From positions 62,001-126,000 of the forward strand of contig QPGO01000044.1 in the NCBI GenBank assembly GCA_008632985.1: DNA of 64,000 nt, written 5' to 3'. Each line of letters opens with the position of its first letter. Within the stretch, counting starts at the first letter, position 1. The position numbers and the translations under genes were made by a program. Below, one piece after another: positions 1-59,404 of this stretch. This DNA comes from Psammoneis japonica (lineage: Eukaryota). The notes under the pieces were generated by a model. It saw only the letters and a program-made list of their open reading frames with translations, was not told the origin of the DNA and did no database searches.

Positions 1-534
1 ACCCGATCAGGCCGGCCAAGCAAGGCGCTGTGGAGGAAGGAACAAACGCAGGAAAATCACCCTTGCCCCAACACAAGCTGCAGCCGCAGATGCTTTCTCT
101 CACAGTTGTCCTTGTGGACCTTGTGGAACTGCAGAAGACCAGCAGTCCGGGGCAGATGCGGAGCAATGGACTTGGCGTGCGTGCAGCAGGTTGGTCTGTC
201 TGTCAACCTGGGCAGGATCCGCTGAAGGGAATTTGGAACCCCAAGTGCCGGAGGATGTGGGAATTCCTGAGTGAACAAATGATGTCCATTGAGCTGACAC
301 ATTCAGCAAGGTGGGCACATGCTCCCACCCCAACAATGTGCTTCGTGGAAAAATTTCTCGATGACGATGATGAGCACTCAATGGACGAAGATGAGCGAGA
401 CTGTCAATCTGACAGAAATTGAAGACAACTGGGTGGAAGAAAACAGTGACTCCTTGCTGCTGTCCAAATGGCAGATGAGTCTCCGTGCAGAGACCGTTGC
501 AGGAGCCGAAAGACTGGCATCGTGATGTCAGTGC

Positions 535-795
535 TGCTGCTGTTGTTGTTCTTGTGAGCCAAGTGGCTCAAAAGCAAACCACATCGCGCATTGTGCGCGG
601 AACCAAGAGCACACACAATTGTGTGTGATGAGCTGGAATCTTGTTCAAATCCTGTCAATGTTGGCACTGCTGTTGTTGTTTTTGTGAGCCAAGTGGCTTG
701 AAAGCTGCATCGCATGTCACACACGGAACTGAGAGCGCACATGATTGTGCAGGACAAACTGAAACCTTGGTCAAATCCTGTCACTGCAAGAACAC
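535..795. repeat. Tandem duplication of ~130 bp inside decayed repeat DNA
   Basis: tgctgttgttgtt(c/t)ttgtgagccaagtggct ... tcaaatcctgtca occurs twice (about 535-665 and 666-795). Confidence 0.7.
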
Positions 796-1865
796 TTTGT
801 TTTTGTGATGCTTTTTGCAGCAAATTGGTGTGTCCATCTTGACATGAATGGCAGATCAACGGCAATCTTTCACACTGCAAAGTTGTTGCTCAGAGCCACT
901 GTGCAGAAACTGTGCAAACCACCAAGAAAAGACAACAAATTGTCTGCCCATCTTCCACATTTGTCTGCACACATGTGCCTGATCAGTTGCCAGTTTTGCA
1001 CCAAAGTGTGAGGAGACAACAGCTTTGGTGCAAAAAGGTGCAGGTTCTGCAGACATCCCCAAGCAATTTGTTGACTGCACGACACACCCACTTTCTTGTT
1101 CGCTTCCTGTTGAGACCATGTTTGTCAACATTTGTGAGCTGCTGAGTGCCCTGGGGTTGGCAATTAGAAGCAACTGTGCCCATCCATTGACGGTCAAATG
1201 TGCTTTGTTGTTGTTGATGTGGCCGCCGATGAAAAAGGGGGCTGTCGTTGTTGTTGTTTGTTGACATTGCTGCCAAGAAAAGAAGGAAGCTGCGATGAAG
1301 AAAAAATGATGTCCAGCATTGAACTGTTCATCTCAGGCTCCTTTTGCCAAGATCTTAAACTGGCCCTCTCCCAAGTGGCAACAAATGGCAACATTTCGCA
1401 TCCAATTTCGAGCACTTGTCAATTCAAACCATGTTGGCATGATTCGTGCAAAACGACAGTGCTTTTTCATCAGATTTGCCATGCAGGGTCATGTTGTCAG
1501 TGCTGGGCAGTTGTGTTGGGGTCTGAAAAGCCATGGGAAACACCTGCTTTGGCAAAAGTTAAAAAGGGGCAACATCAACGAACTGGTCTTCTGCGCAGAG
1601 GTGATGAGCTGGCATGCTGTGACCACATCCCAACTGACAACATGATCAACTGACACCACTCGACAATGTCTGCTGGACATGCCAGCCACAGGAGACATCA
1701 ACAACAGCACATGACGGACTGGTTTGGCAGGAGACCCACACGCATTTTAAAAAAATCACAATTTTCTTGTGTGATTTCACATTTGAATCTTTGTCGAATG
1801 AGAAAAACACATTCGGGAGAAAACGGTTGAGACAACATCTTTTTACTTTTGTTGTTCAAAGCTGT

Positions 1866-2213
1866 GGGGTGGTCATTTGTTGCTTTTCTTGGCTCAAATT
1901 TGGCCGAAAAGCTCATGATTTGCACGAATTTTCCTGAATTTCACCGTGCTTCAATGTGGTAAAAACATCAAGCCATGTGTCTGTGACAGAGATGGCCCGT
2001 CTTTCAACTCTCATCTTTTTCATGTTCGTTGTGCATTTTGAAGGTCGCATGTGCACCAACTGTTTGAGGACGGACCACTGCGTTTTTGGGTGCCTGATGT
2101 CCTCGTTTTCGTGTGCGATCGGGTGTGAATGCGAATGACTTTTGTAGTCAAAAAGTGCACACTATAACTTTTTTCAATGCCACGGTAATTCTAAGATAAA
2201 CGGGGGGATGACC
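1866..2213. mobile_element. MITE, decayed copy of the 2787-3173 family
   Basis: Colinear with 2787-3173 apart from one internal gap. Ends ...ggggatgacc followed by TTAA (2214-2217). Carries many TA->TG/CA and CG->CA differences in its left part. Confidence 0.8.
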
Positions 2214-2217
2214 TTAA

Positions 2218-2782
2218 GGTACGCGCATAAGTCGCGCACAGAAGTGCAATGTCGGACAGACGACGGCCGTGTAAGTGATTGCGATTTGCACGACAAATTT
2301 ATTACCGTTCGACGCCGACGATGACGATGACAATTTTCAGACGCTGATAGAGGACGACTTTGCAATGGGCACTTAACGTATAATCAATTACACTATAAAG
2401 AACATGCGTGTTTAAAGAAAGTCCCCTGACGAACTCATAATCGTTCGATAATCGAATGCATAAAACGATGGTCGAAAAACAGAGCTCTTGTTGGTATGAC
2501 GTTTTGCTTTCGAACGGAGGTTGCTCGCGGGGAGTTTCATGACTGAATACGTTCTTAAAGTTAAAAAACTAAATGTCTATAATGACAAAAGACTCTGGGA
2601 CACGTCGCTGTCATCGCTATCGTTACGACAACGCGCCACCGTCGCGTCACGTCGCCGATTTTTGGCGATGAGGCGCTACGCGCGCTACGCGCGCTACGCG
2701 CGCTACGCGTTTCTCGTACAGTAGAAAATCCTGAAAAATCAAATCGTCGTGCCTCACGTCACCCCTTTGTTCTGCGAATGCC
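2218..2782. mobile_element. Putative TTAA-flanked non-autonomous element
   Basis: Bounded by TTAA (2214-2217 and 2783-2786). Imperfect TIR: ggtacgcgcataa versus the reverse complement of the right end, ggcattcgcagaa. Contains the 9-mer gcgctacgc four times at ~2673-2709. Confidence 0.45.
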
Positions 2783-2786
2783 TTAA

Positions 2787-3173
2787 GGGGGGTCATTTGC
2801 TACTTTTTTTTAGCTCGAATTTGGCCGAATAGCTCGTGATTTTCATGATTTGTCCTGAATTTCACCGTGCTTCACCGTGGTGAAAACATCAAGCCATAAG
2901 TCTGTGACGGTCCGTCTACCAACTCTCGTCTATTTTATGTTTGTTGTGTATCAAAGGTCACATATATACCAAATGTTTGTAGACGGACCACTACGTTTTG
3001 GAGGAATATCGAGATTTCCGTCATCGTCGTGCTTCGATCACGGTGCTTGATGTTCTCGTTTTCGTGCGCGATCGGGTGTAATATAAATAATTTTTGTATT
3101 CAAAAATAGGCACTATAAAAAATCCTATTTAAATGCCTCAGTAATTCTAGGATAAACGCGGGGATGACCCCCC
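2787..3173. mobile_element. MITE with perfect 10-bp TIR and TTAA target duplication (Kolobok-like termini)
   Basis: TTAA|ggggggtcat ... atgacccccc|TTAA, no ORF. Purine-starting termini with a TTAA TSD fit Kolobok better than piggyBac. Confidence 0.85.
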
Positions 3174-4471: not shown

Positions 4472-7400
4472 AAACCAAGACGCATGTACGAAATGTATGA
4501 CAGCATACGGCCCACATCACTCTTTTCTCTTTTTCACGCTTCCAGGTTTGTGAAGAAAGAGTCTGACTCTTTTTTCCGTTTCGGCCGAGTTGAAAAGAGT
4601 CTAGAGTGAAAATCCGGGTAAGTTCGAGCTTTTCGAGCTCTTTCGTCTTTTTCATTTTCTTTTTTCGCTCAATTTTCGACAAACAATAAACAAACCGCCC
4701 GCCAGCCGAAAGGACATTAATGATGCATATTAAAATTAAAACCAATATAAAAGTTCGTTATAATAACAAAAGAATAAATAAGAAGTTTCAAAAAATCATC
4801 TTATCATACATACACCATAATGTACTACGTAATTCAGACTGCTGCCGGCCTATGTTTATATTTCAGAGGGTGATTCTAAGATAAAGTTTCCTCCGGTTGA
4901 GTCTGTTTTTCTACTTAATTTCTACGGGATTTTCAGAACTAGGAAATGAAGCTCCGACAACCGCATTCTGGCGATTTTGCCCTAAATTCTGTCTTGGGAC
5001 GATTAAACAATCAATCACAAAATTCCTCCTTATTCCTAATGGCTCTATAGAGATTCCGAACCTTTCTATTATTGTTGATTGTTTGGGTTGGTTGATCATA
5101 ATATCATCATGGACTGCTGAATAAGCGGCAGCGGCATCGCATTTCATCGTCATCGCTGGGTGAAGCTTTTCTGCCACTTAAAGTTTATCAGCCAGTATTA
5201 AACGCGTTTTTCTCGATTCGAGGTCGAGGCCACTAAGTCTCCTTTTCTCATCCGTCCGTTCATTTCTCCATTTTCACGCATCATGCACGCTGCGCCTGGC
5301 TTGTTGAAAAAATGGTATCACGCATTGAAAACAAAAATGTCCATCTCAGGCGAATTTTACTAAGACGTTAGGGAAGCATCTTTTTGCGTTTGGGCGCAAA
5401 GCTAAATTAATCTTTCAGGGTTTTTAAAGCCCACACACTCCAAAATTTGCATGTGTGATAAAATACATCTTTTGCACAAGCCTTCCTCGAAAGTCACGAG
5501 GAACAAAGACAGATATCTTTGATCGGTGGTCTTTGGTCCATTGCTTTGTTGCATGTTGCTTAGTTGGTAAATATTTCTCACCCACATTTATGGTTTGTGT
5601 TTTAAAAATTGTCTCTTTTTCCCCACCACTGCAGCTAAAAGTCGTGTCAAAACTCTAGCACTTATTCTTATTCTCATATTCCCTCACACAAGGAGGTGAT
5701 TAGGTCAGCTGCAAGCAACAGGCCTGTGTTATCCGTTTCAATTTCTTGATTTAGCTTTATCACAGTAGCCGAAACTTGGGAATGCTGAATTCCTCCCAAC
5801 ATAGCCGCCGACTTTTTTGCGTAGGTACGTGATTTCTTGATCCGCATTTTTAACAAGCAGAAAATAGAAGATAGGTACAATTTACCTTAGCAAATTCTGC
5901 AAAGAAAACAATCTTTTTAAGATTACAACGAGGAGTTTTGCTGGAAGATGCAGGTGGAGGCACGGTTAATTCTTGATATTCTTTAGTTTCCCTACCAGGA
6001 TGTATTGCGTGTTTTTCCTCTTATCGCATTTCGTAGAAAAAGTGCGACAGATCAAATCTTGTGTGATGAACACATCTTGTGCGATGAACATTCATTAAGA
6101 AACGCGTGAAAACAATGAAGCATCAGGATCTTACATAGTTTACAAGTTAGCTCCTGATCTTTCTGTTAAAATGATCCATAGTTCAACAAACCCTGTTAAA
6201 ATGATCTATAGTTCAACAAACATTTGCAGGCCACTGGCAATGCTGCTGAATTGCCTCCTCAATCCTTGATGACTAACACACCAGCCAAGCCGAAATCCTA
6301 CAACTGCATTGAGGGTGGGGGTCCGTCACTGCTTTTTGGATTGAGTTCAGCCAAAAATGGCTATCAAAAGTATGTAGACTGCAGGCTACATTTTAGAGAA
6401 TGATTGTCGTCATTGTCGTGCTTTGATCGAGTGCTTGATGTTTTCGTGTCCATGCGCCCGTGGGGTCTGAAATGATCACGCCATTTGCCATTGGTTCAAT
6501 TCTATTTATTTAAGGCGCTGCCATGCTTCCACCCTGCAACTCCGGCAACAAGCTAACCCACACCCCGGTATTGATAAACATGCCCCTCCTTTTCGGCTGT
6601 AGTTCATTGCAACAGACAGGCATCTTACGGTACCGTAGAGTTGTGTCACTTATAATTTCACAACTTGCCTCAACTTTGGATTTTTTTTTGTCTGCGCATG
6701 CCTCAGTCTGCGTTTATGACATATTCGTTCGAGGGGTCGGTGATGAGTGAGTTTTGTATTAACCTTGTTTCTACTGTACTGTATATATATATACACATCT
6801 ACTGGCGAGTGTCGCGGCTGGAGTCTACGACACCCTCACTGCAGGACAAGAATAATTGTCTTTGACGTCATGTGTGATTTTCGTCGTTTTGCGAGACTTG
6901 ATGACGTTGTGGGTCAGCCCCGCGTTTTGAGAAAAGGGGGGTTTATGAAGGGGAAAGTGTGTACTCTCTATTATGTACCGGTAGTTACGTAATGTAGTCA
7001 TACGAATAAGGGGTGGATTTCCCGCGGTTTTCGTCATCTGCGCGCGCGATTTTGAAATGAGAACTGGCGCGGTTTGCCGTATTAGGTTCCTCTACGTAGT
7101 GATGGTGTTTTGGCTGTCTTGGGGCTACATGTAGAGATCGTCCGTGAGTTGGTGTTTGGTATCTGTTCTTGGTAGAAAAGTCTGGCCCAAGTTGGGTCAT
7201 TTAGTGCTTGTATAGGGATAGAGGCCATCCTCCCACTGGGGACGTTAGTTATGGGAGTGTTTTATTTTTGACTTAAAAATTATTCACATTGGCGATTCAG
7301 GAAAAGTGCACACACATTTTTTCCTTTTTACACACAACGGCGCACATCTCTTGGTGTTGTAACTCAACAACTACTACACGCCCAGAGCCGTCTAGCCGTG

Positions 7401-9844: not shown

Positions 9845-12282
9845 CTTGCCGTCTACAATTTGCACCTGCTTGGCAGAAGTCAATGGCAATGAGAGCACCA
9901 CAGCACTAATTTTGTGCCGCCTTGTTTGTGTCAGCACAGCACAGCACCTGGCATTTGGTGTTTGTACCGGCATTCAACGGCTCACAAGAAAAGCAGGTGC
10001 GCAAGTGTTGTCAAGTGTGTGTGAACTTGAGGTTTGTTTTTTCCCAACGCCAATCCGATCGGTTGGATGCCTGTTGATCATTCACATGTCACTTGTCTCG
10101 TCATTCTGTCATGAACAGTCTATGGTGTCCGTTGAAAGATTCAACGGAAATCCGGTTAAAGTACGGTAAGAGGATCCGTTAACTCAACGCCAATCGCATG
10201 CGCGATTTTGCGGCCCACGTCTGGCCGCAAAATTCTTATCGCAAATTTTTGCGACCCACATGTGGGCCGCAAATCGGTCTTAATTTTTAAAACAAAGCTG
10301 TCTCGTCATTGTTTTTGTGGGAAAAATCAACGTTGGAAGTGATGTGACACAATCCGAACAACAACAAACCCATTGTTGCCACCAAACATCAACACTGCAC
10401 TGTCATTTCCCGAAGACCAAAATGCACAATCAATCCCTCTTGTTGTTGCTTTCCAAAAGTGCCTCTTGAACGAGACCCAAAAAGGGCAGACTGGGCAAGA
10501 GGGGTCATGATTGAAACTCAGGATGGCACTGCACTCTGACATGGTGGGGATGGTTTGGCATTCAAATGACAATGATGGATCATGGGCAGCCAAGACTTTT
10601 CCCAACAAGCCACTGGAGCAACGTGTGGTGGCGAATGACTGAGAACAGACATGTGAGTGTTGTTGTTTTTCAAAACCCGCAAGAGCAAAGATACAGTGGC
10701 AAAGACACAGTGGCATTTGCACCCTTGCCAATTCCCAAAGCCACTGGGAGCAACGATGCTGTCGGCACTCTTGAGCTTGTTCCACGCCTCCCCCTGCTCC
10801 GCTTCCACCTCGTCTTCCAATTGGTCGCCTCGACCAAAACCAGTTCCAAGTGACACTGACAACTAATGGCAGCATGCTGGAATGGTGAAAGAACACCAGT
10901 GAGCAATTGTTGCAAGCAACAACAATGCAAACTCATGTTTCTTCTTTTCCCAGTCCAAGCTTTGCTGCCTCTCTCTCTCTCTCTTGCTTTGCTGCACCAC
11001 CTTTCCTTTCTGTTCCACTGGCTCATGTTCACTAGATCTGCATTTTCAGAAGGATGCTGTGTGGATGTGTGAGGAGCACAGCACAGTTAAGAAAATCCTG
11101 ACAAACAAGCTGAGTTGGAGTTTCACTGAGATTTGGAAGAACTCGGTCCACCCGGCCTTCACTTCATTGTGTTCCCACCAGCACTGCCTTTTGTGAATTT
11201 GCTCTTGCAGCCAAATGGCAGGCCAGTTGCCTGGGCTATCTCTCTGCTCATTTGGCAACATCAACAGTCCAGTGCTGGGTGTTGAAGCACTCCCATCTTC
11301 TGGGAGATGTCCATCTGCTGCAAAACAGTCCGCGGAAGCTTGACACATGTGGCCCTTGCATTGGCGGGTCATCAGATCAAGATCTAGAAGATCCCACCTT
11401 TGGCTTGTGTTTTTAGATGGTTGCTTGACAAAAGCATTTCAAAGAGTGCATCACAGAACCTCTTAAATGAAGAACACACCAAATCATGTGCTTCAGCTTG
11501 TGTGCTTTTGGGGATGGCCCACAGAAAAGTTGACTGCCCAGTGGAGATCATTGGATGCATTGGAGCAGTTCTTGTTGCTGTCATGAGCTTGATTGCAGTT
11601 GTTGACAGCTGAGAGGGTGGCAATTTAACAGGTTGGCTGCAGACCAGTTATCTTCATCTATGAATCAGCTTGCTGTGAATGGTGAAAGAGGAGCAAAAAT
11701 GGGTGGAGTGTGGCTTTGGCTGCGAACTCCGTTCAAGTTGTAGAGGAGAGATCTTGTCTGCTTTGTCAGATGAACCCAGGTTCTAGATGTTGTTCCATGT
11801 CAGTGCATCTGGTTCCATCATCTTGAAGAAATTGTCTTAATCCACTTGCACCAGGCATTCATGTGAACCCATTCCAATCAACACTGCATGGAACATTTCC
11901 CATTGTGGTCTTGTGCCTCCAACAATGGTGCACAGTCATGGAGCAAAATGGGGCTCCCCCTGTTGCTTGGAACATGCTGAGGAAAACCGCTTCTCCTTCT
12001 AAACACATTGTTTGGCTTCACTCTGCAGGAGACTCATGCAGGACATCTCACAGTGAGCTCAATGTGTGGTCTGCATTGCCATTCAATGGGCGGCTTGTGA
12101 AGAAGCTCTTCCAGGCATTTGCCAGCAACATGGTGAGCAAACTGTCATTCTTAGAAGACTGAGACAACTTTCTAGAGCTTGCAACACATGACAATGATCA
12201 TCTCACAGTGTTGTCAACAATGTCCAATGTTGTTGAAAAATGACTGTTAACTTCAGTGCGCAAAATTGAATTCACCGAATGT

Positions 12283-12302
12283 CACACACACACACACACA
12301 CA
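12283..12302. repeat. (CA)n microsatellite
   Basis: About 10 CA units, at the point where the copia remnant ends. Confidence 0.9.
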
Positions 12303-12317
12303 GCCAAAACAATCTGT

Positions 12318-15300
12318 TCAACTGTCTGATTGTTTGTCCATCCCAATTTCACATGCCACATGCACAAACCACTCTGACTCAGAGGACCAACAAAGCATGG
12401 CAGCATCTGCACTCTTGATCCCTTCTGGGAACTGATCAATCATCTGGTGAATGCAGTTGGTCATGTCAGCCTTCATCTTGCCTTTCTTGTTGGTGAAGTC
12501 TAGGGTCACAGCAAGCCAGCCATGCTCCTTCCCTCATGCTTTTGGGTTCATGTGGGTTGCCAACAGGTCATCCACATGGAAATGCATGGCACGCTTCTTG
12601 CCATTGATGATCTGATTGGCAATGCACAGATTGTGTGGGTTGAACACAAACCAAATCTTTCCCAAGTCTTTGCAAAATTGCTTGTCCCACAGCAGAGCTT
12701 TTGCCAACATGCCATGCACAGCTCTGATGACTCTAACACAGAGAACTCTCTTCCCCTTCTCCATGACCACATGTGGCCCATGCAGGTTGGGAACAATGCT
12801 CACCAACATGTTGACCAATGCTCCTCTGCAATCTTCATCCTTGGGCTCCAGAATCAGAGTCTGCATGAATGCATTTGGTGCATCAGCATTGCAGTCTCTG
12901 CCGCTGGCTTTCCTTCTGATGATGCCATTGGGCTGGCTGACTTGTCCTTGTCTGGCCATTCTCCAATCAATTTCTCATTGTGAACCACTTGTCCTTTCAT
13001 GTGACCATCTCATTTCTCTGTTGGGAATGTGATCAAGATGACCACAGCCTTGGTCCTCTCAGTCACAACAATGTCCTTGACCAATGCTGCTGCTGGTGCA
13101 AAGCACACTTGGTCGTGCAGCTGTTTGGCATCTTTCTCTGAGGCATCATGCCCCTTCTGGTCAAGTGCTTTTAGGCCTTCATGTGGCAAGTGCTGTTGAG
13201 CAAAGGAAATGCCCTTCCCTGATTGGAGTTGGTTGTCAATCTTGCACATGAATTGTGCTGGCACCATTGCTGTTTCTGTGTTGCACCCAATGTCATCGGC
13301 TGGATTGGGGCTCATCTTTGTTTGTAAATGGCAACAGAACTCAAGTTAGTTTTGCTCTTACTCTGCTTTGGCATCTCTGCCACTCCTGCAAATTGAACTT
13401 TCTTTTCTCTGAATTGATGTGATTTGATGTTGAAGGATGCACCAATCTTCAATTTATCTGCTTCCCATCTTCTGTCTTTTGGGATTCATCATCATCTTAT
13501 GACTCTTTGTTGTTGTTGTCTTCTGACTTTTTGTCATCTTCATCTTCTTCATTGCCTTTTTCAGGACTTTCTCATTCTTGTGCTGTTGATTGGGGCTGGA
13601 TCTTTTGTTGGCTGGAGCCTTGTTTGCTTCTTTACACTCACAGTCTGAGTCTGCTTTGTCTCCACAACCTTTGTCTTCTGACTTGGTCATGTTGTTCATT
13701 TCTATTTTGATCTTTGTCTTTGCTTTCATTGCTGCTTTTGCTTTCATTGTTGTCTGCTCCAGTGGTCTAATCAGCATTGTGCAGATTGTCTCCATGTTTG
13801 CCATGAATTTGAGTTCTCTGATGCCTTGCACTGTGGCCATCATCTCAACACAGCTTGTGTGTGCATGTCAGTCAAGGGTGCAGCAATGCATTTGCAAGAT
13901 TCAAAAGCTTGCCCATGTGCAAGCTCATGGTGCAGGGGCCACCCATGGGCAAGAAATCAAAACATGGTTGCAGGTGGGTGATGCTGTCAACACCATGCAC
14001 ATGTCCACATTGTTCATTGGTTCATGCTCAATGTGAGATGGCACAAATTCCCCAAATGTGAACTTGGAGAGTTTGTTGCAATCAAAGCTTCTTCATTGCA
14101 TGACAGTGAATGTGTTGTAAATTCCCTCCTTCTGTGGCACATGTTCAACATGACAGTGTTCTTGGTCACAGCATGCTTGCACATCAACTTGGGTGTCATC
14201 TTGTGTGGCAGGTCATGCACAGTGGCTTGAGTTCACTCCTTGATGTTCAAGAACATGGTCGCTTGCATTTGTGGACATCAGCTCTAGATTCATGCCATCC
14301 ACGACTTCTGCCAACATTGCCTTGAACTCAATGAAATCAATCTTGAATGAAGCTGCATTGTGCTGTTGAAGAATCATGTCCAGTGCACCACAGATGTCAA
14401 CATGCTTCTTGGACTTCAGTCTTACACTTGATTTGTGCTCTGTCACTCTTGTCTGTCATGTGCAGCAGCTTGACACTGCATGGTTCCATGACATCAATGC
14501 AGAGGATCATGCCTTCTCTCTGCTTCTTGTGTGTCTCAGGTGGTGCGACCATGATGTCATTTCTCAAGTAGGAGTGTGTGCATGTTTGGTCTTGCCCTTT
14601 AATGTGTCCATTGTTGGATCCTAAATGGCCTTCATCTCCTGTCCATGTCTTTGGGTGCAATGGACAAGTTGTTCTCACCTGGTTTGAATGCAAAAATGGC
14701 TTAAAATCCCTCATGTTGGGCACTCCAGCCTTGCTGTGTGGTCTGAGTGCTCACTCAGCATTCGACACCTCCCTCTTGGTGTGGGGCCTTTGAAACTCTG
14801 CTCTGCTGTTTCCAGATGCACTCCTGTGCTTTTTGTTGCTTGCTGTTGTTGTTGTTCTTCTTTGACAGCATGCTCACATGTGACTTCTGCTTTCTCTTGG
14901 AAATCTTTCACATGTTTAAAGAACTTCTGGCTTGGTGGCTGCAAAGGTGCAAAGCCTTGTGTTGCTCACTTTGAATGCCACAGCTTGCTTGCCAGTCTTC
15001 TTGTCCTGTGGGCAGAGCTTGTTCACCACTTGGTTGTCACACGCAATGCAGCACTTGCTCTTTACATTTTTTAAACTGAGGATGTTTGCCATTGTCTTCT
15101 GTGATCTTAGCAGCTCATGCCCCCCATCCAGGCACGGTGCAGTTTTTGTCTAAAGTGTCCACTTCTGTGTTTGTGGACAAATCAATCTTGGTCTTTGCTG
15201 GTCACACATTGTGCACCAGTCTCCTGCTTGCTGCCATGCTGAGGGCAGAGCCATTGTCAGGAGGATGATTTCATCCTCTTCAATGCCTGCATTGGCTTGG

Positions 15301-16760
15301 TTCTTGCTCATCTCTGCTTTCTTGCTTGCCAGTTGAAACCTGTGCCATGCATTGCTTCTCCTGTTTCAGCTGGAGCAGGTTGATTGGTTGGATTTGGTGA
15401 TGTCAACACTCATGTTGTCACCATCCACCAACAAATGGTCAACACCTCTTGTCTGTGTGTGACTCTGTCCTCAAATGTCCAACTTTTTTGCTTCTGGTGT
15501 TCTTGAGCCAGTTGTCAAATGCAATGTCAACTCAATGCTTGCAGTCTGGGGGGCTTGTGATTTGGTTCACTGCAACAGCAACACACTGTGGCATTGCTCT
15601 GGGGTTGCTCTTCTGGGCATGGCTCTTGTCTCTTGGGTCATCAGACTTTCCATTTGTTCTCGTTGTTGCACTCTTCTTGTTGTTTGTGCACACTCATTGT
15701 TCCTGTCATTGTGTCATTCATGAGGATTGCTGTTTTTCAGATGGTTCAGCACTGCATCCATTGCTTTGTCTGGGGTCTTTGGATGGGTGGTGTCTTTGTC
15801 CAGGCTGCAGTCTCTCATGAAGTTTTTCTTTGGGCTCTTGCAGTGACAATCATTGCTGTTCTCCATGAACAGCAAGAAAGTTGCTTGTTTCTCAAATGTT
15901 GTCTCCTGCAGCATGTCTTGGGCTGTCACAGTGCCTTCCTTGCACTCCTTGGTGTTGGAAATGAGCTCATCTGGCATTCTGTTTCCCAGTTGCTTGCAGC
16001 TTCTTGCTGATTCTTGAATCTTGACAGGTGATCATTCCAGTGACTTGTTCTTCTCTTGCCTCACATCCAGTGTGTTCTTCAAGGACTTGGCAAGTGCAAT
16101 TGTCTTGTTGTCTTTGAGAGCTGCTTTGTCTTGTGACAGTGTTTGTGTGATGCCACTTTGTGCTGACACTCCATTTCTTTGTCTTCTTGCTGCTTCTCTG
16201 ACAGCTTGACTTGGTGTGTTGTGGGGTCCGAAGTTGCTGCCAATGTCCAGACATGTTCAAGTCAGGTCTCCAGGAAGTGAAATCCTTGCATTTCATGTCT
16301 TTTGAAGATCTTGCCAAGTGCATGCCTCATGCACACTCTTTCTGCATGTGATGGATGATCTTTTCTTTGATGCCTTCATGCGTTGCATGGTGAGAGTTGC
16401 CATTCAGTGGCTCAGGCTGGAACTTCACCTCAGGCTGAAAGCTCTTCTCAGGGTCAGTCTTTTTCTTGAAACAAGAGGACTTGTGACTCTTGTCACCTCT
16501 GGCTGCTGTGACCACAACCTTGGCCTTGGTCTTCGCCACTTGCCCCACCTCCTCCTCTGCCACTCATTTTGTGGGGTTCTGGTGCTGGCCCACTGCACAA
16601 GGGTCAGTGTCTGCAAGCACTGAGTGCAGTGCCAGCAACTCTTTGGACAGCGAATGTTGAACTGGCAAGTCAATGTCACCAAAAAGAAATCCTGCCAGGC
16701 TTCCTGTGCTGCTTGATGCACTTAAATTGCACAAACCAAATGACACTCTCCAAAGAGTGA
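12318..16760 (-). mobile_element. Decayed Ty1/copia LTR retrotransposon (gag, integrase, RT; 3' end truncated)
   Basis: RT remnants ADAPNAFMQT, RAVHGMLAKALLWDKQF, FNPHNLCIANQIINGK..FHVDDLLATH and MTLDFT..GKMKADMT. Integrase-like segments at ~14000-14550 and gag-like segments at ~15700-16560. Copia domain order; many stops and frameshifts. Confidence 0.9.
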
Positions 16761-16768
16761 GATGAAGT

Positions 16769-17058
16769 TGAAAGGTGAGAGGCTGGTGTCAACAAAATCT
16801 TGCTCACAAAGAGTTGTCAAATGAGCCATGGCAGGAGCCATGACATTTCTTTTCTTCAACACACCCAGGTTCTTTGTGCTTTAGCCATGACATGGACATT
16901 CCAACAAGAGGCAGGGGTGGCAGAGGACAAGAACCCCCTCTGGGCAAGAACAGGCCAGAAAGAGAGAACTCTGAACACAATGAGCACCAAATTGCACTTG
17001 GAGAACTGGAACTTGTCAAACAAGAACAGGAGAAAAATGCCAGCTGGAGGATGCTACA
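16769..17058 (-). repeat. Possible 5' LTR of the copia element
   Basis: On the minus strand it starts TGTAG at 17058, abutting the Ngaro tail repeat, and ends ...tttCA upstream of gag. No second LTR is available to confirm it. Confidence 0.3.
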
Positions 17059-17059
17059 A

Positions 17060-17920
17060 GATGCACTGTGGCTCTCTGGCAAAAACCAGAGGGGAGCTGG
17101 TGGCTCTGTTGTTGGACTGGAATGGCTTTGCCAGTGGATGCACAAGCCTCATTCCCAAAACCCAAGCTGGAATGACAGGGCCAGAGGGTGGGAGAGGTGG
17201 GAGCATTAAAAACTGTCTGTCTGCTTGTTGCTGTTGCTCTTGGTTGCTCTTTGAAAAAATGAGAAAGAGCACAAGGTGAAGAGCAAAAATGGCCATTGCT
17301 TCAATCTTGTGCAAGCACGTTCAAATTTTTCAAGGGCAGAAAAAAAGTGACCCAACGGTCAGCGTGGGTCATTTTGCCTTGTCAAATGTCACAAGGAGGG
17401 TGGCTGATGCTGCCCTTCTTGTTTGTTCTCCTGCGGCTCTCTAGCAATGACCATGGGGGAGCTGGTGGCTCTGTTGTTGGACCGACTAGAATGGCTTCAC
17501 TGGTGGATGTGCAAGCCTCATTCCCAAAACCCAAGCTGGAGCAGCAGGGTCAGAGGGCGGGAGAGGTGGGAGTGTCAAAAGTTGTCTGCTTGCAGCTGTT
17601 GCTCTTGGTTGCTCTTTGGAAGAATGAGAAAGAGCATGAGGTGAAGAGCAAATGGCCATTGCTTTAATCTTGCACAAGCACATTCAAATTTTTCAATGGC
17701 TGAAAAAAGTGACCCAACGGTCAGTGTGGGTCATTTTGCCTCATCAAATGTGGGTCATTTTGCCTCATCAAATGGCTGTCACTGCCCTTCTTGTTTGTTC
17801 TTTGCAGCTCTCTGGCAAAAACCAGAGGGGAGCTGGTGGTTCCATTGTTGGACTGGAATGGCTTTGCCAGCGGATGCACAAGCCTCACCTCCCAAAACCC
17901 AAGCTGGAATGGCAGGGTCT
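17060..17920. repeat. ~365-bp unit repeated about 2.4 times at the 3' end of the Ngaro-like element
   Basis: The block ggggagctggtgg...cccaaaacccaagctgga appears three times. The block aaaaaagtgacccaacggtcag appears twice here and again at ~24378-24400. Confidence 0.85.
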
Positions 17921-20900
17921 TCCAGCACCACCCACAGTGTGATGCACTTTTTTGAGGCATGCACCATTGGGAGGGTGGGTGGGGAAGGCTGGCTGTGGCA
18001 ATCCAGCCCTGTGAATCTTTTGGATTCATGAGGATGTCAGCATTTGGGTGCAGGGCAAAATTGCCACCAGTGAGCATGTTGTGAGCAAAGTTGCACATGA
18101 CAGGTTCTGCCCACAAGTGCAGGTGGCGTGCAACATTTCATCAGATTGCCAATGGCCCAAGAGCTGAGTGAAGTCTGCATTGACATTGGCACAGAGGAGT
18201 GCCATGGCACCAGCTGTGTGAAGGCACACCAAGCAGTGACATCTCAGGTGTTAAAGCCAAGATTTGCCAGATTGCAAGCAACAACAGCAGCGCACAAAGC
18301 ACACGTGACATGTCAGAAGGGGACACACAATGCCAGGCATCATTTTGAAAATAGATGCCAAGGGGTGTGTTGGGGAGTGTGCCATGAGATTGGAGATGTT
18401 AGACGCAGTGGACAAGTGCCTGGGTTGGGCACAAATTGGGGTGTCCCGAGTGGCCGAGTCCCAAAACTTTCCCGCGAATGCCATTCTTCTGCATGGTGAA
18501 AGTGAGAGTGGCAAATGTGGCAGCATCAAGCTGAGCATTGGTGGCTTGGAGAAGGTTTGAACAAATGCCACCTCTGGATGCCAGGCAGACATCAGCAAGA
18601 TGGACTGGTGTGGCATCGGATGGCGTGGTGGTGCTGGGATGCAGCAAACAAAAGAGTGTGATGGCAATCATGTCGGCAACAGCCTTTGCACCAGGGTCAA
18701 AACTGTTGGAGGCGGTGTGCATGACCCAGGTGAGGATGGCCACCGGGACCAGTTTTACATGGTTGGGCCTCTTTCTTGTAGAAACAGATTTGCCGGGTGA
18801 GGCAGAAATCCACGCCGCTTTGGGGTGTGCAGAGTGGGTCTGGGGACCCCATTGCAGCAAACATTTGGTCAACTGACCATTCAGCATGTTCAGCAGCATG
18901 TCCATGGATGGGATTTCTACATGGGGCAATGGCTCCTGTGCAGCATCAGTGGAGGAAGACTTGCAGAAAGACAACAGAGTCATCAATGTCTTGGAGTGGT
19001 GGGTCGAGGACCACAGTGGTGCAGAACTCACACACTTGTCCCAATGGGCATTGGCAGAGGATGCTCTTGAATTGGCAATGCCATGTGCCACAGCATGTTG
19101 CGCAGCATTGTTGAGATCACGAATGAACTCAATTCTGGTGGTGGTGTCCAAAGGTGCCAGGAGAGTGTCTGCGGGTGACAAAGGTTAAAATGGTGCAGAA
19201 ATTCATGGTTGGCCAGGGATTGCAGGTGTGAGGCATCATCATCAGCAGAGTTAAGGTGTCCTGGCCAGTGATCATGGAGACCAAGGTGCCGGTGGCAGCT
19301 TTGGTGGAATGCTTGGTGTTCTCAACAGCTCGGATGCTGGCTTGATGGTTGCAGCAGATCCTTTTTGTTGCCAGCACATCATGCCCAAGTTGTCAGTGCA
19401 GGAGAGGTTGGTGCACTCTCAAATGTCACAACAATCCGCCGCAGCATGTGATTGGATGACACTGCCTGCCAGTTTGAGGTCTGTGCCAGTGATTGGGCCC
19501 CAAGGGTTCTTGCATGTGGCAAGGTGGGACATGACACTTTTGGGAAAGGGGAGGCACCACACAATGGGGCCAGTGTCACATTGAGCACAGGTGCATCCAT
19601 TGCCAAAGCAAAGTGTGGTGGCACACAGGATGGTTGTGTTGGTTGGGAAGAGCATGCCCCCTGCTCCATGCTCTGCTGTGTCATGACAGCTGGTGACATT
19701 TGGTGTCAGCAGCACCAGCTCTGGGATGCAAGCTGGGCATGATTCAAGGATGGCCTTGAGCTTGCAAAAATTGTCTGGTGCCAAGTGGGCATTGGGCGTG
19801 AGGCAGACTTGTGAGTCTGGTGCAGTGTGGAGGAGGTTTTGCTGAAGTTCCAAGTGCAAATTGCATGAGCCCAGCACTCTGATGCTGAGGGAGCTTCTGG
19901 CAGTCAGTGATGGTGGCACGCTTTTTTGGTGCAAGGAAAAAGTCCTTGTGCAGCACAGTGCAAAGTTGTTCATGCTGACATGGTGGAAGGTGGAGGGTCA
20001 TGGACTGCATGTCAACAATGATCCAGCCCACAAGACTTCCTTCTGTGCTGACCAAGTGGCATCACCCTTGCAGAGCTTTTTGACAGATGCAGGCTCCTTG
20101 TGGGTGGCAGGGGTGGCAGAATCAAGTGGTCAAAAGATGTTGTCCAAAGCATGCAGGACGACCTGGTGGACATTGAGGCATGCGTGGCAGGATCCTTGAG
20201 AGGTGCCGATAAAATCATTGACACACACTTCAATGCAATGCAGACAATGATGGCGGTGGTGGTTTCAGTGGGGGTCTGGTTGCTCAGGGACAGGCACTGT
20301 GTGTGCATTGGAATTTGTTGGTGGTGGTTGGTGCTTGGGTGGTCGACCAGTCAGGTGACATTCCAAAGGGTGGGGAGGCATCTGCACTTTGTGCACAAGG
20401 TCCAAGTTGGCCATGTCAGCTGCCATCTTGGCAGCAGTGCCAAACAATGGTGGTAAGTTGGCCATTGGGAAATGGGTGGGAAAGGGCATGTGTGATCCAC
20501 AACAGGGTGTGGCCAGCAACCATGCTGTGGGACCACTCCAATGGGGCTGGGGTGCAGTCCTGGTGTGTTGCACACTTCTTCACAAGGAACAACCATCCAG
20601 AAACCCTTTTCCACCCTGCCGGCCATGTCTTCACACAAAAACTTGATGTGTTCACAGGCGGAGTTATGAGGTCCTCTGTCAACACTGGCATCTGGCTCAG
20701 CATGTGTCCATGGGGCATCAGTGATGGTGACTGGGGTTCCCTGATGCTTGAAGGCTGTCAGCAGTTGGTGAGCTGGGTGCCATTGGCTGTGGTTCAGCGG
20801 TCCCCAATCTCCTCTGCCACTGCAAGAACACATCAAGCAGCTGAGTCCTTCATGATGCAATGATGCATTGTCAGTTTTAATGTGCACACCCAATTCATCA

Positions 20901-23309
20901 TTGCAAATTGCAGCAGCCACATCCTGTCCATGTGTGGTGAGGCAGGTGTGCTGCCTTTTGAAACTCTCCACAAGTGGGGGTTGTGGATGTGCTGGTTGTT
21001 TGGCTGACACATGCAACAGCTCTTGCTGGCAACAAGTCCCCACATTCACACCATTGCCGAAGACCCATTCAGTCTCCCAGTGTTTCTCACCCCAGGCAAG
21101 GAATTGCTGCTGCTTTTTGTCATTGTGGTCATCATGGTGATCACAGCTGGAGCCACAGTTGGAGTTGCACTGCCCTTTGATGTGGCAAGGGTTGCAGCAG
21201 ATGTGTCTTTGGTTGTCTTTGGGCAGCTTGATCTTGTCCCAGGCACAATGCATTTTTACCTCACATGAGTGCACATTGGGGTGATTGTGCAGCATTGTGA
21301 AGCACAAGTCACAAGATGGGTTCTGAACAATGCTGTTGGTGCTGTGCAAGCAGAGTCCACAGGGCTGAGACTTGTGTGCTTGCCATGTCCAACTTGATGG
21401 CTTCCAATGTCATGCCAGCTGTGCTGGTGGGAAGCATGGTGGGTGGCAAGCTGAGGCACCAAAGCATTGTCCCCTCAGCTGCCTTGTGAATGATGCTGTG
21501 CCCCGTGAACAGGATCTCCTGGTGCACTGTTGCTTGAGACAGGAACCAATGACATGGCTCAACCTGTGCACATTGCTGGAAGTTGACAGGCAGGGTCAGA
21601 TGAAGTGTGTGCTGGTGCACCAGCTTGTCAGCACACCTGTCCATGTTTGTACACTGCAGAGTGAGCCACCACTGCACAATGTGGTGGTTTTCACCTGGGG
21701 TGGCAGAGCAGACAAGGCGGCATCAGTCATGTGATTGCATGGCTGCCTGCGCAGTTGTTGCCACCAGTGCCTTGTCCGGTGCCTTGAGCAGCTGCGCATC
21801 TTGTGGCAATGGCACTCCTGCTCCTCCATGGATCTGCGCATGCATTGCATTGTGGCAGGCAATTTGCTCAGTTGTGTGTGGGGTGGTGAGTCTGAACAAG
21901 AAAGGGTTGAAAGTTGCGCCAACTTGGTGATGAGGCTCACCATTGCTGGCAGGTTGAAATGCACCTGAAGGGCTTGACGCTGCTGGTTGATGGCATTCTG
22001 GACCATGGCCAGATGTCCTGTCTTTGGCGCGGGTGCCAATGCAGCCCACAGTGGAGACAGTGCAGCCTCATTGCATGTCTGGCACCAATGCAGGATCTTT
22101 GTAACCCCAAAGACTCCCCAGAACTCTGCTGGCATCTTGCCTCATGTGGCAGCCATGTGCCTTGCTCCTCATCCAACCGCTGCTGTCGCTGCTCTGTGGC
22201 AAGTTCCTTGATGGTGGCAATTGCAGGCTGGAACTGCTGTGGTTGGATCTGTGTCCTTCCCCTGTGGCCCTGCAGGTCTTGTTCTACCTTGCAATCAAAG
22301 AAACAGATTGGTGCATCATTGGGAGGGTGCATCATGGTTGGCCAAGGCTGCACTGCTGCTGACTGGAGCTGTGCATTCTGCATGGTGCAACACACAACCC
22401 ACAGGTGATCTACAAGTGGCTCCAGTGCCACAAGCTTGTTGGCAGCTGTGGCTGCTCAATGGTTCCTTACATGCATGTCCTTTGGGCCAAGGGGCACAGG
22501 CAGGAGCAGACAGATGAACCCAAAAGGCACAAACATTGCACCGCATCTCATCACCTCTTCAGAGTCCTGTGCATCAGCTTGCACGTGTGGGTGGAGGCCA
22601 TTCGGCACAGCCACAACATGTGCTTGAAGCATGTTGTTGTGTGTCAGAACCCAAGTCCCTTGACCAGTCAGAACAAACAAATTGTCCCCAAACTCCATGA
22701 GTGTGAACTGGCCATGTGTCAGATTGCCTGCAACAGCATGTGTGCCATCGTCCCATGGTTGTGCTGTCATCTCATGGTTGAGCCGGTCCCACCACAGCAG
22801 CCGGGCAAGTTGAGACATGATGCAACACCTGCGTTTGCCCTTCATTGGTGGTGCCATTGGTGTGCCATCGGGAGGTTGTCACTCGAAGCCAATGTGACCC
22901 TGCCTTGTGGCACACCTGGGTCACACCGTGATGCTCCTTGCGCAGGCACAGCAAAATCCAGCACAGCTTCAGTGCAGTCACCATGGTGTGGGTCTTGTTT
23001 GGTGTCTGACAAAAAATGGTCTTGGCAGTTTCACATTGCTGGTGGCACCACTGGGATGCCTCCCCTGGCGGTGGTGGTGGTGCGCGGTTGGGCTGGTCCT
23101 GTGAGGTGGCAGCGGCGCATTTCCCGCAGCTGCAGCTGGTTGTTGTGCTGGTGCTCGGCTCTGCCTGTGGTTGTGGCACCGCTGCATTTACGTTGGGGGC
23201 ATTCTGCCCCCCTTGTGCCCCTGGCACGGCTCTTTCATGTGGTGTGGCTCCTCCTGCGAACAAACAAGAGCGGAGGATGCTGTTGCTCTTGGTTGCTGTT
23301 GGTTGGGGA

Positions 23310-24325
23310 AACTACCTGGCAGCACGTGCACGTGAGAAGTTCACGTGCAATGTCACCCAGTGGCGCGGGGGGAGGGACAGACGTGGGGCAATGGTGGAAC
23401 GGAGTCATGTGGGTGGGAAAAGGGATGGATTTCGAGTTGGGGTTTGATGTTTGTGATTGTAGTTTGGTGGAGCAGCAGGTTAGTTGGTCAGCGAGCGATT
23501 TGGCATTCGCGAGGCTCAGGCTCTGTAGACCCCATTGTGATGGTGTTGAGGAGTGGTGGGTTGGGCCAAAGCATTCGGCAGAGATGGTTTGCCAAGTGGC
23601 GGTGGCAGTGGGGAGGATGGCAGATGGGGATTGTTGGGCGCAGGCGCACGCGGCGTGGGCAGCTGGGTGTTGAAAACAAGTTTCAGTGTTCCAAGGTGGG
23701 GCGGGTGGAGCAGGGATGGGGAGGTTTTGGTTGGTGCCAAAAAGAAGGCGGTGGGCGAAGTAGCCTGGAGCTCCTGGGTGGTCCATGGCAAAGGGAATGA
23801 GGTGGATGCCGGCGTTGTTAAGGGTGGATGTAAGGGTTGCTTCATGTTGGGTCTCGTGGGTTCCGTTGAACTTCCGTTTTGTGCTCACATGGTGTGCCTC
23901 GGAATGAGGGTTAAGGGTGGGGGCAGGCAAGCCAGGAGCAGGCAATGGGGGAGGTTTAGGGACAGTGACGTCAATGGCGAGGTGTTGGTGGCCAAGAGGG
24001 GAGGCAGTGGAGGCGGCTGGGGTGAGTTGGATGCCTGCGTCAGCAGGGTGTTTGAGGGGCGAATGAGGCATCAGATTGGCTGGTTTGTGGTGCGCGGCGG
24101 AAGAGTTGGCACAGATGCCGGAGAGTGGGGCAAGTGTTTGGAAAGCAGCGCAGAGGCCGTCGCGGATGGCGTTGGACATGGTTGTTTTGTGTTCGAGGGA
24201 TCGACAACAGAAGGCATGGTCACAGCATGGGTCAATGGTGCCAGAGCAAGAGGGGCAAGAGGTGGACTCGAGTTGGTGGGGCGAGATGGGGAGCCGCAGT
24301 TTGTGTTGCAGCATCAGGCAGAACT
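23310..24325 (-). mobile_element. 3' fragment of an RLE-type (CRE-like) non-LTR retrotransposon within the Ngaro 5' repeat
   Basis: LQHKLRLPI, CPSCSGTIDPCCDHAFCC..SNAIRDGL (zinc knuckle), HPADAGI, LAIDVTV, KRKF, LIPFAMDHPG: the pattern of a PD-(D/E)xK restriction-like endonuclease C-terminus. Confidence 0.7.
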
Positions 24326-24717
24326 GGGCCGTTGCTTTAATCTTGCGCGCAAGCGCGTTCAAATTTTCCAACGGCTGAAAAAAGTGACCCAACGGTCAGC
24401 GCGGGTCATTTCGCCTCGTCCATGTCACGAGGTGGGTGTCACAGCGCACCCAGTCGACAGGTGACGCGTTCATGTGGCTTCCACGTGTCAACGCGTGACA
24501 TCGTCGAAAACCGGGCGGTGAACGGCCGACTCGCATACATCCAGAAATTCAGAAAACAGATAAAAGATTCATTCAAAAAAGATCTTCTTTACAGTAGTAG
24601 GGCTATCGGTTCGCAATTACCAGCATAGCAGATAGCAGCAGCACCAACAACAAAAAACTGTTTGTGTGTTGACCCAGTCATCATCCTTGTTTATCATACG
24701 GTATTGTTATTCACACC

Positions 24718-27747: not shown

Positions 27748-28249
27748 TCCACTCTAGTAGAATGAGTTTCGACTGCGCAAAACTAGACTACTTAGTAAGC
27801 ACATAGCAAGGGAAAGTGGTTGTCAGTTCCAATTATTTGTGGGCAAAAAAAAAGTAACCCACCCGCACGCACGGAATTGGAATCTTATGCGTTAAGAATG
27901 ACATCGAAAATATTACGGATATGTAGATGTAACATTTAAAATATAAATAATGTTAACGGATCACATGCATATACCGAATATCTATTTGATCTCAAGCTCA
28001 CACTCTACTACAGTACTGTGTTTAAAATTTAAAATGTCAACGGATGATTATGTATAAGGTATTCATACATGAATGTTTTCTCCTATGTAAGTGTTGTTCA
28101 AAACGCCCATGCGTTGGAAATTGCCGGGGACTTCTGCCGGAAAGCGCCTCTGCGAGCCTGCCGGCCAAACAATGCACTGTCCGTCTGTGCGTTGGGGGCA
28201 ACATTTTTTGGAATTTTCGGCATTTTTACGGTGCGACGATACGAACGAC

Positions 28250-46500: not shown

Positions 46501-47000
46501 CTGCTGGACTTTCTGAAGCCATGCAAGATCACCTCCAGGCATGGCGCACAACAACGGATGCTTTCCAGCCACCGCCAATCCTTTTGCCAGGCCAACCTTG
46601 GGCAGGGCTGTTGCAGTGCAATGCATCATTGGCTGGGACAGACTCGAAGAAGGGTGTGAGGCCAAAGAATGCGCAGCAGTGCAGAGCAAACAAAATGGGC
46701 ACAGATGTGGATGAAGCAACTGCTGGAAATGCCACAATGCCTTTGGAAGCACCGCAATGACACTGCCCACCCACAAATGAGCAAACAAGCTGTGCAAGAA
46801 CTGGGCGCCCATGCAAGTCATCACTTCTGCCATGGCAGAGAACAGCTGTCTCAGAAATTTGCCCGCTGCTTTCAGGGACACCTTGTCACACTCCTGCCCA
46901 ATTGTCCAAGGATCACACCTTCAAATGATTGTGGCTTGCCAACGTTGTGGCCACCTGTGAAAGACAATCCAGGGCTCTCAGAGTTGGCACACACCTGCAA
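43546..47000 (+). mobile_element. Decayed non-LTR retrotransposon with RT, RNase H and zinc knuckle (Ambal-like)
   Basis: QALNKQLIFDL..DLHFCHDLVVHSCASLAM, QGLEQGN..PQMWAAVS, FAFVNYSD, RVTGGDVRPDKCWW. RNase H: AASDG, SHWAEING, VCDGKQAL, WVKGHQD, LNIEMDNLAK. CPRC..H...C near 46380. Confidence 0.88.
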
Positions 47001-47458
47001 GCAGCACAGCCGCAAATGGGGTGCAGCGCTGCCTCGAATCAACAAACCCATGGAAAAAAGTGACAACAACAACACCCCATCTCATCTGCATCATTGCTCA
47101 CAACAACAGGAGGACAAGAAAAAAAGTGCGCCAACTGCTGCACCTCCGACTGGGACCTCATGCCACAGATTTCAAGTTTGGTTTGTTCAAAAAGTTGCCA
47201 GCTGCACCGGGGACCTGTTCCATCAAATCTGGAAAACCGATGGCTCCATTTCTGCCATGCAGCATCCTGTGCCACAGCCCTGCTCAGGTGGGTCAATCAA
47301 TGAAGATGCTCCTTGACTGCATGTCAAGTGTGCCTTGTTCAAATGTGCCCCTTCAGATGCTGGTCCAGAGCACTCCTCTGTGGAGCCCTGCAGCCAGCTG
47401 GCCAAAAGCCCGCAGAGGGTGCCAGAAACAACTGGTGATTGTTGAGTTGATTGTCTGC

Positions 47459-59338: not shown

Positions 59339-59404
59339 GAGGACTGCCTTGGCCCTGATTGCATGGAGAATTCCATGAGGACTGCCTTGGTCCTGATTGC
59401 ATGG
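59339..59404. repeat. Short tandem duplication with 38-bp period
   Basis: gaggactgccttgg(c/t)cctgattgcatgg occurs twice. Confidence 0.8.

Follow-up and report, generated by a model that had tools for sequence, protein, structure and literature searches.

We begin by considering the one described system in which DNA is mutated specifically at the dinucleotide TpA. In mutation-accumulation lines of Bigelowiella natans, 230 of the 231 single-nucleotide mutations in two integrated viral regions are A>G or T>C, and all of those A>G and T>C mutations fall at TpA (Mettrop et al., bioRxiv 10.64898/2026.01.13.699255). The same preprint maps 124 TpA-poor clusters, gives a rho(TA) of 0.45 for the hypermutable viral region (the 5% tail of 1-kb windows starts at 0.43) and proposes an ADAT2-like deaminase; its main text mentions neither CpG, nor wider sequence context, nor diatoms. 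Until this 2026 preprint no cellular process was known to turn TpA specifically into TpG or CpA in DNA. In our literature search it was the sole directly relevant paper; for diatoms and other stramenopiles the search turned up no account of hypermutation directed at TpA. Here we examine a stretch of 64,000 nucleotides from Psammoneis japonica (contig QPGO01000044.1, hereafter the window), near the left end of which lie two copies, A and B, of a miniature inverted-repeat transposable element (MITE). The window resembles B. natans, as the preprint's main text describes that system, in that TpA gives way to TpG or CpA on both strands, in that the change is restricted to local regions contrasting with the rest, and in the long-term signature of low TpA with high CpA plus TpG; in B. 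natans, transposon-type domains are also enriched in TpA-poor coding sequences. The explanation that we favour, and consider probable, is a domain-bounded process that turned TpA into TpG or CpA in place, with copy A straddling one of the domain edges.

The features of the MITE pair and its surroundings are as follows.

1866..2213, plus strand: MITE copy A, 348 nt; the left 272 nt lie in a TpA-free domain, and TpA is retained in the right 73 nt
2786..3173, plus strand: MITE copy B (388 nt), flanked by TTAA at either end and terminating in 10-nt inverted repeats; in a TpA-normal domain
2137..2145, no strand: edge of the TpA-free domain within copy A; the last converted step is 2136-2137 and the first retained TpA is at 2145
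2214..2785, plus strand: spacer between the copies, a dispersed repeat with TTAAG at both ends; TpA-normal
6362..6457, plus strand: partial third member of the MITE family, lying in a TpA-normal domain; it serves as a third sequence for polarity

Copy B lies 920 nt from copy A and has the properties of a MITE: it is short and non-coding, ends in inverted repeats, is flanked by a TTAA duplication and exists in many copies. The TTAA target duplication would make it a putative piggyBac-like element. Copy A preserves its right end together with its TTAA, and carries a 40-nt internal deletion relative to both copy B and the fragment at 6362-6457. The two copies are 72% identical with gaps counted, 84% identical over aligned columns and 91% identical in the purine/pyrimidine alphabet; because the identity climbs from 84% to 91% in that alphabet, most of the differences are transitions. 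The copy numbers come from run X1, which is the only public run containing the region and is possibly the assembly's own data. In this run 656 contigs match 1700-3300 at a likeness of at least 80%, and the summed k-mer depth reaches 28,897 over copy B and 6677 over the 572-nt spacer, with about 52-69 on unique flanks. Copy A draws few contigs (depth 90-450 vs thousands on copy B), and the flank at 1700-1861 is low-copy (depth 69-130). A single contig, at depth 69, runs through 1700-2338 without any difference or gap, and the domain edge in copy A is therefore not a join peculiar to the assembly. Inside the spacer repeat, 2672-2710 is a short tandem array of a 9-nt CpG-rich unit, and the rho(CG) of 1.64 over 2001-3000 is the highest in the window.

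To compare the copies, all pyrimidine-purine steps aligned in both were tabulated, and the table was split at position 2140 of copy A. Left of this position copy B has 12 TpA, and none of them is TA in copy A (TG 8, CA 3, CG 1); the sole TpA of copy A on this side, at 1960, is TG in copy B. Right of this position 6 of the 7 TpA of copy B are TA in copy A as well, and the other is TG. The retention of TpA thus differs sharply between the inside and the outside of the domain (0/12 vs 6/7, Fisher p=2.6e-4), and the asymmetry between the copies within the domain is 12 vs 1 (binomial p=0.003). At CpG the picture is another: within the domain the 14 CG of copy B appear in copy A as CG 9, CA 3 and TG 2, while the 13 CG of copy A appear in copy B as CG 9, TG 2, CA 1 and TA 1. 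The CpG differences between the copies are symmetric, which is ordinary decay, and only at TpA is the difference one-sided. An earlier reading of the sequence alone (the sequence-only reading) had rested on a set of paired strings, and all of them are where it had placed them: catatatacc (2961-2970) against catgtgcacc (2048-2057), ccactacg (2988) against ccactgcg (2075), and further gtgtat/gtgcat, ttttatg/tttcatg, aataat/aatgac and ctcgaa/ctcaaa. Its claim that the mutated domain stops inside the element also holds, with TA back in copy A from 2145 (actataac, ggtaattctaagataaa) and the edge between 2137 and 2145. It had further taken the pair as a direct display of TpA turning into TpG and CpA. 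The difference at TpA stands, but the direction does not follow from the pair, since two sequences cannot polarise a change.

The TpA-free state is not confined to the MITE. In windows of 1 kb the sequence switches between two states, TpA-normal and TpA-depleted, and the depleted domains make up ~41 of the 64 kb (about 60% of the window).

2141-10330, 24441-28238, 37350-42049, 47925-49544 and 52981-56785: normal domains, 22.1 kb; rho(TA) 0.61, rho(CG) 0.98, rho(TG) and rho(CA) 1.18; per kb TA 45.8, CG 50.1, TG 74.5, CA 72.0, sum 242.4
all depleted domains together, 41.4 kb: rho(TA) 0.07, rho(CG) 0.23, rho(TG) and rho(CA) 1.81; per kb TA 4.3, CG 14.1, TG 115.8, CA 110.8, sum 245.0
1..2140, no strand: TpA-depleted domain with 6 TpA in 2140 nt and a CpG rho of about 0.45; it takes in the low-copy flank 1700-1861
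10331..24440, no strand: TpA/CpG-depleted domain
28239..37349, no strand: TpA-depleted domain, in which CpG recovers earlier, at about 37090
42050..47925, no strand: TpA/CpG-depleted domain, the right end of which is the duplicate of a Copia-like remnant described below
49545..52980, no strand: TpA/CpG-depleted domain
56786..64000, no strand: TpA/CpG-depleted domain

The first 1164 nt of the window hold zero TpA. While TA, CG, TG and CA change between the two states, the remaining twelve dinucleotides are almost equal in them, so the pattern is restricted to pyrimidine-purine steps. Because the sum of these four steps is conserved (242.4 vs 245.0 per kb), depleted DNA is the normal purine/pyrimidine skeleton in which TG/CA has replaced about 91% of TA and 72% of CG. 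The edges are sharp, within 50-100 nt and, in copy A, within 8 nt. The highest rho(TA) of any 1-kb window is 0.91, and no copy or domain has an excess of TpA. The skew of TG vs CA per 2 kb is modest (-0.17 to +0.19), that is, both strands are affected about equally. The depleted DNA includes a retroelement, DNA-transposon derivatives and low-copy DNA, and the recognisable host genes are spared, all of them lying within normal domains.

For the direction of the change we rely on sequences outside the MITE pair.

34983..37349, plus strand: Copia-like remnant, integrase to RVT_2, in a depleted domain; the homology stops where TpA returns
50227..50326, plus strand: depleted-domain copy of a 100-nt repeat, the normal-domain copy of which is 3757-3858

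The Copia-like remnant lies in the depleted stretch 33972-37349 on the plus strand, with integrase followed colinearly by reverse transcriptase. An exhaustive HMMER search with one stop-free piece of it (36992-37351) returns 360 relatives at E<=0.001; Pfam RVT_2 is present in 15/15 of the long relatives checked, and tblastn orders the relatives colinearly along the window. Taking as consensus columns those with at least 6 homologs aligned and at least 60% agreement gives 274 columns, of which 181 are unchanged in the window. Tyrosine is kept in 0/5 of its consensus columns and is replaced by Cys three times (TGC, TGT, TGT) and by His twice (CAC, CAT), the exact products of TAY turning into TGY or CAY, while the columns that are neither Tyr nor Arg are kept in 179/257 (Fisher p=0.003). 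Among the five changed columns are the two in which Tyr is most strongly conserved (in 15/15 and in 14/15 homologs); we take these two to belong to the LYGL and YVDD motifs known from reverse transcriptases of this family. A looser count gives the same picture: of the 185 cells with Tyr in a homolog, 64 are Cys in the window, 49 are His and 0 are Tyr, and 15 of the 24 codons aligned to Tyr in at least 3 homologs are Cys or His codons in the window. Consensus Arg appears in the remnant as Gln 4, stop (TGA) 2, Cys 1, His 1, Arg 2, Asn 1 and Ser 1; the Gln, His, Cys and stop among these follow from CGN turning into CAN or TGN. As a control, PGK, which lies in a normal domain, keeps consensus Tyr in 4/4 and Arg in 7/8. 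Because the ancestors of the remnant were working enzymes, TpA is the ancestral state and TG/CA the derived one.

The 100-nt repeat pair, found by a self-comparison in the purine/pyrimidine alphabet with decoy controls, is similar to the MITE pair: in an alignment read by eye, about 9 TpA of 3757-3858 are TG (5) or CA (4) in 50227-50326. Other genomic copies, as seen in run X1, add further support; of the 192 rows of differing places, 40 were examined. Among the 40 rows, 13 of the 20 that are A>G or T>C fall on TpA of the normal-domain copies in the window (expected 18%, p=4e-6), while only 1 of the 9 that are G>A or C>T would make a TpA. Polarisation by majority rule from these data is confounded: should most copies lie in erased domains, the commonest letter would be the mutated one. 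A metagenome scan with the conserved 21-nt core of the MITE gave two loci, which match over 21-24 nt only, as expected by chance, and no further copies. The direction from TpA to TG/CA is supported by evidence outside the pair.

The survival of TpA depends on its neighbours. Expressed as the ratio of densities in depleted and normal domains, it rises from 0.018 in RTAY through 0.068 in YTAY/RTAR to 0.266 in YTAR (p=2e-24, chi-square); TpA disappears about three times more slowly where the A is followed, on either strand, by a purine. By analogy, such a bias would suggest descent of the enzyme from the deaminases that act on the wobble adenosine of tRNA, which naturally target U-A in the anticodon loop. 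Of the 179 TpA that survive in depleted domains, 44 are in TTAA, vs 71 of 1013 in normal domains; since TTAA is the target site of the MITE family, some of these survivors could be young target-site duplications. The 3' neighbour as a predictor of whether TG or CA results is without support, as 5 of the 10 informative paired sites fit and 5 do not.

The loss of TpA and the loss of CpG overlap but are separable. Over 1-2000 the rho(TA) is 0.00-0.08, yet the rho(CG) is about 0.45, and 37090-37349 of the Copia-like remnant is CpG-normal with one TpA, so that the CpG and TpA edges are offset by about 260 nt. The proposal of the sequence-only reading that A:T to G:C transitions are aimed at TpA, apart from CpG decay, is compatible with every independent test that was run. 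A segmental duplication of 1.8 kb and 92% identity (36892-38690 / 47461-49301) carries the end of the Copia-like remnant and a minus-strand gene of sulfotransferase type (37504-38619 / 48081-49217), and its two copies traverse a domain edge at the same point. The duplicates have a TpA-free state in common and differ by additional changes of CG to TG/CA (36892-37083 / 47461-47660). Because the TpA-free state is common to them and CpG differs, the erasure of TpA is older than the duplication and CpG decay continued after it.

Combining this information, the process that we favour would act on the DNA in place, within sharply bounded domains, and would, by A:T to G:C transitions in either strand, turn TpA into TpG or CpA to the point where hardly any TpA remains, with ordinary CpG decay going on in overlapping but non-identical domains. 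Copy A would span a domain edge: TpA would have vanished from its left 272 nt and been retained in its right 73 nt, as it was in copy B. An enzyme may deaminate adenine to inosine where a T precedes the A (5'-T-A), the chemistry put forward for B. natans; the targeting may be of silent, transposon-rich chromatin, and the role may be genome defence. In the wider form of this idea, a domain-targeted DNA adenine-deaminase defence (a "reverse RIP", after the repeat-induced point mutation, RIP, of fungi) would have erased nearly nine in ten TpA from most non-genic DNA, spared the genes, and be the same system as that of B. natans. This wider form, which draws on the analogy with B. natans, is a real possibility that we hold only tentatively. 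If it were true, TpA-directed editing of silent DNA would be an old and widespread eukaryotic defence, at least across stramenopiles and rhizarians.

Several observations weigh against conversion in place as the whole history of the MITE pair, and most of them also favour a different history, in which copy A derives from, or is a recombinant of, a master copy that was erased elsewhere, and in which the pair records the history of subfamilies even though the process exists. At 4-5 of the 12 sites one TG/CA state is dominant in the other copies: at B 2967 (89% of depth), 2981 (67%), 3008 (90%) and 3085 (58%), together with 2993, where the loose-end consensus of seven X1 contigs is TG. Since independent conversion predicts a mixture of TG and CA, a master copy or a gain of TpA in the lineage of B fits these sites better. 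The fragment at 6362-6457 has TpA in common with B at 2967-68, 2980-81 and 2992-93 and TG in common with A at 2963-64, and at 3047, which is no TpA step, it again agrees with B and differs from A and the majority; because it shares states with B at such a site, the MITE family has subfamilies. Some of the twelve differences between A and B may therefore have been inherited from a mutated master or be gains in the lineage of B, and the in-place changes listed by the sequence-only reading have to be qualified to this extent, a minority (B 2967, 2981, 2993, 3008, 3085) being possibly inherited. The edge, only about 8 nt wide, is sharper than is expected of a chromatin boundary and looks like a recombination joint, and copy A could be a recombinant of mutated and unmutated copies. 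The window moreover displays a fixed erasure, with no sign that the process is still active, and the erasure of the duplicated segment predates its duplication. On the other side, the TpA-free state extends from copy A without interruption into 1865 nt of flank, part of it near single-copy depth; at 2964 and 2966 the loose-end consensus of the other copies is TATA where copy A has TGTG; the remaining in-domain sites are absent from the majority differences listed (40 of 192 rows); and the right part of A is no closer to B than its left part, with 11 differences in about 70 positions. With these points taken together, we regard inheritance of the differences as unlikely.

The other alternatives change the direction, the timing or the chemistry of the process. 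If copy B had been mutated in the manner of RIP, TG/CA would be ancestral and the normal-domain repeats would have gained TpA through C-to-T changes at CpA. The 12-to-1 asymmetry of the pair fits this equally well, and in 13 of the 40 listed places most of the other copies have TG/CA where the normal-domain copies of the window have TA. The region of copy B (2001-3000) is nevertheless ordinary, with rho(TA) 0.70, TA/AT 0.79 and (CA+TG)/(AC+GT) 0.90, as in gene-bearing normal domains, and such a gain would account neither for the TpA-poor low-copy flank and 41 kb of the window, nor for the change of Tyr to Cys/His in the Copia-like remnant, nor for the 6/7 TpA retained in copy A right of 2140. 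This alternative, which the sequence-only reading had itself raised, is rejected on composition (there is no excess of TpA) and on the tyrosine codons, which point in the opposite direction; we consider it scarcely credible. Editing before integration, in which ADAR-like editing would act on double-stranded RNA or complementary DNA of retroelements and the mutated copies would then integrate, the domains being patches of them, agrees with one depleted domain and the Copia-like homology ending together at 37349. ADAR also favours U before the edited A, according to the Discussion of the B. natans preprint (bioRxiv 10.64898/2026.01.13.699255). Copy A, however, is the derivative of a DNA transposon and is converted only in part, the low-copy flank is converted too, and both strands are affected about equally (the skew given above). 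The surviving TpA are enriched before purines, so that loss is fastest before a pyrimidine, unlike the preference of ADAR for a 3' G; we find this order of events very unlikely. The pattern would be an artefact if bases at TpA and CpG were modified in silent chromatin and misread in sequencing. Both steps are classic sites of base modification, and the only run with the region may be the assembly's own data; but misreading on either strand would leave a mixture of TG and CA at each site and broken contigs, whereas 1700-2338 is covered by one k-mer contig of depth 69 that shows no difference, and the 92%-identical duplicates have fixed, site-specific TG or CA states in common. An artefact is thus as improbable as a RIP-like gain. 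For the chemistry there is the thymine: if the T of TpA were modified (e.g. oxidised to hydroxymethyl- or formyl-uracil) and mispaired with G, T-to-C changes would follow in the same direction, and T>C at TpA on one strand is indistinguishable from A>G at TpA on the other. Nothing in the window speaks against this route, and the preference for the adenine route comes solely from two parallels, the mechanism proposed in B. natans and the U-A context in which tRNA adenosine deaminases act. We see the thymine route as a less likely chemistry, though one with an appreciable chance.

With the domain-bounded conversion of TpA as the preferred reading, the window can be compared with the known systems. 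As in B. natans, the changes are almost only A>G or T>C, although they are fixed differences and not new mutations; the mutated A is preceded by T at 12/12 MITE sites, in the fall of TpA from 45.8 to 4.3 per kb and at 5/5 Tyr; and the changes lie in discrete regions, as the domain map gives them. The two systems differ, within what the preprint's main text covers, in that new mutations arise in culture in B. natans, while the window has only a fixed, near-saturated erasure (rho(TA) 0.07, about 60%); in that the targets there are viral, while those in the window are the Copia-like remnant, MITEs and low-copy DNA; and in the overlap with CpG loss and the effect of the 3' neighbour, which belong to the window. 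The hosts differ as well, the nearest named PGK relatives of the window being from diatoms. Like the RIP of ascomycete fungi, the process has left dense transitions in transposon-rich DNA, with sharp edges, some spill to neighbours and a loss of coding capacity. RIP makes TpA from CpA/TpG, whereas in the window TpA is destroyed and CpA/TpG doubled, and a RIP tract is delimited by the duplicated sequence, whereas here an edge lies inside the MITE and the tract runs into the low-copy flank. Decay of CpG through cytosine methylation likewise turns CG into TG/CA in the same general compartments and is still accumulating between the duplicates, but it cannot remove TpA, its edges differ and it is symmetric between the MITE copies. 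ADAR-type A-to-I hyperediting of double-stranded RNA from repeats has in common with the window the A-to-G change and the preference for U/T before the edited A; what differs is that the window concerns the genomic DNA of a DNA-transposon derivative and a low-copy flank, with a near-absolute 5' T and with survivors enriched before purines.

The window suggests that the same process occurs in an unrelated, diatom-like alga, and hence in a second major lineage, where it would be near completion over most non-genic sequence; within the window the coding capacity of transposons is destroyed and genes are untouched. If this holds genome-wide, the enzyme and the signal behind the targeting could be sought in a second system independent of the first, and a natural A-to-G editor of DNA with a strict dinucleotide rule would be at hand. 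Such a genome-wide process would also explain the abundant open reading frames (ORFs) in all six frames of such DNA, and it would be a warning for annotation, because homology searches fail on erased DNA, in which tyrosine and many arginine codons are systematically rewritten.

The genes recognised in the window are the following.

24856-25800: PGK (E 1.9e-110), normal domain
8414-9973: polysaccharide pyruvyl transferase, normal domain
53435-54187: YbeY, normal domain
54515-55078: Ricin-B lectin domain, normal domain
several places: sulfotransferase-like ORFs, normal domains

The best relatives of PGK are about 78-82% identical, the named ones being diatoms (about 78-80%), and no identical protein was returned. 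In the depleted domains, long open frames occur on both strands and in several frames, because TAA and TAG stops have been eliminated. Of the 144 ORFs of at least 110 amino acids there, 0 reach the Pfam gathering score, with three weak matches at chance level only, and no viral domain and no viral gene was recognised among them by Pfam. The 40 ORFs of at least 45 amino acids on 32100-37420 give only sub-threshold Pfam matches to RVT_2 (E 0.019) and SH3_retrovirus (E 0.014), and the 34 ORFs of at least 60 amino acids on 42050-47860 give only RVT_2 at E 0.024, in the duplicate of the remnant. The ORF at 22363-23670 has no relative in the protein atlas (best score 0.79). The ORF at 45410-46057, in a depleted domain, has language-model neighbours that include RNase_H and RVT_3 clusters (0.87-0.91), which rank below unnamed clusters (0.92-0.94); it may be a second retroelement remnant, and we treat it as a lead. 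Pfam and two protein searches gave it no relatives at the thresholds used, and it yields no second test of polarity.

Other repeats are found in the depleted domains. Inverted copies of an unclassified repeat lie at 3-636 and 58108-58856, both in depleted domains, with 70-75% identity in four letters and 88-91% in the purine/pyrimidine alphabet, as expected if each was converted independently. An inverted 670-nt repeat (20521-21184 and 42407-43072), again with both copies in depleted domains, is revealed only by the purine/pyrimidine alphabet (80% identity). A tandem repeat of ~365 nt at 17066-17919, also in a depleted domain, has 80% identity (92% purine/pyrimidine), and a 110-nt piece of it recurs at 24327-24438, at the right edge of that domain. 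A TpA-normal unit of 3.2 kb (38770-41947) is situated between inverted repeats of ~120 nt (83-87% complementary) and contains a 737-amino-acid ORF (39208-41418) that matches no Pfam family; a depleted domain begins about 100 nt past its right end. Judged by this structure, the unit may be a young or active DNA transposon.

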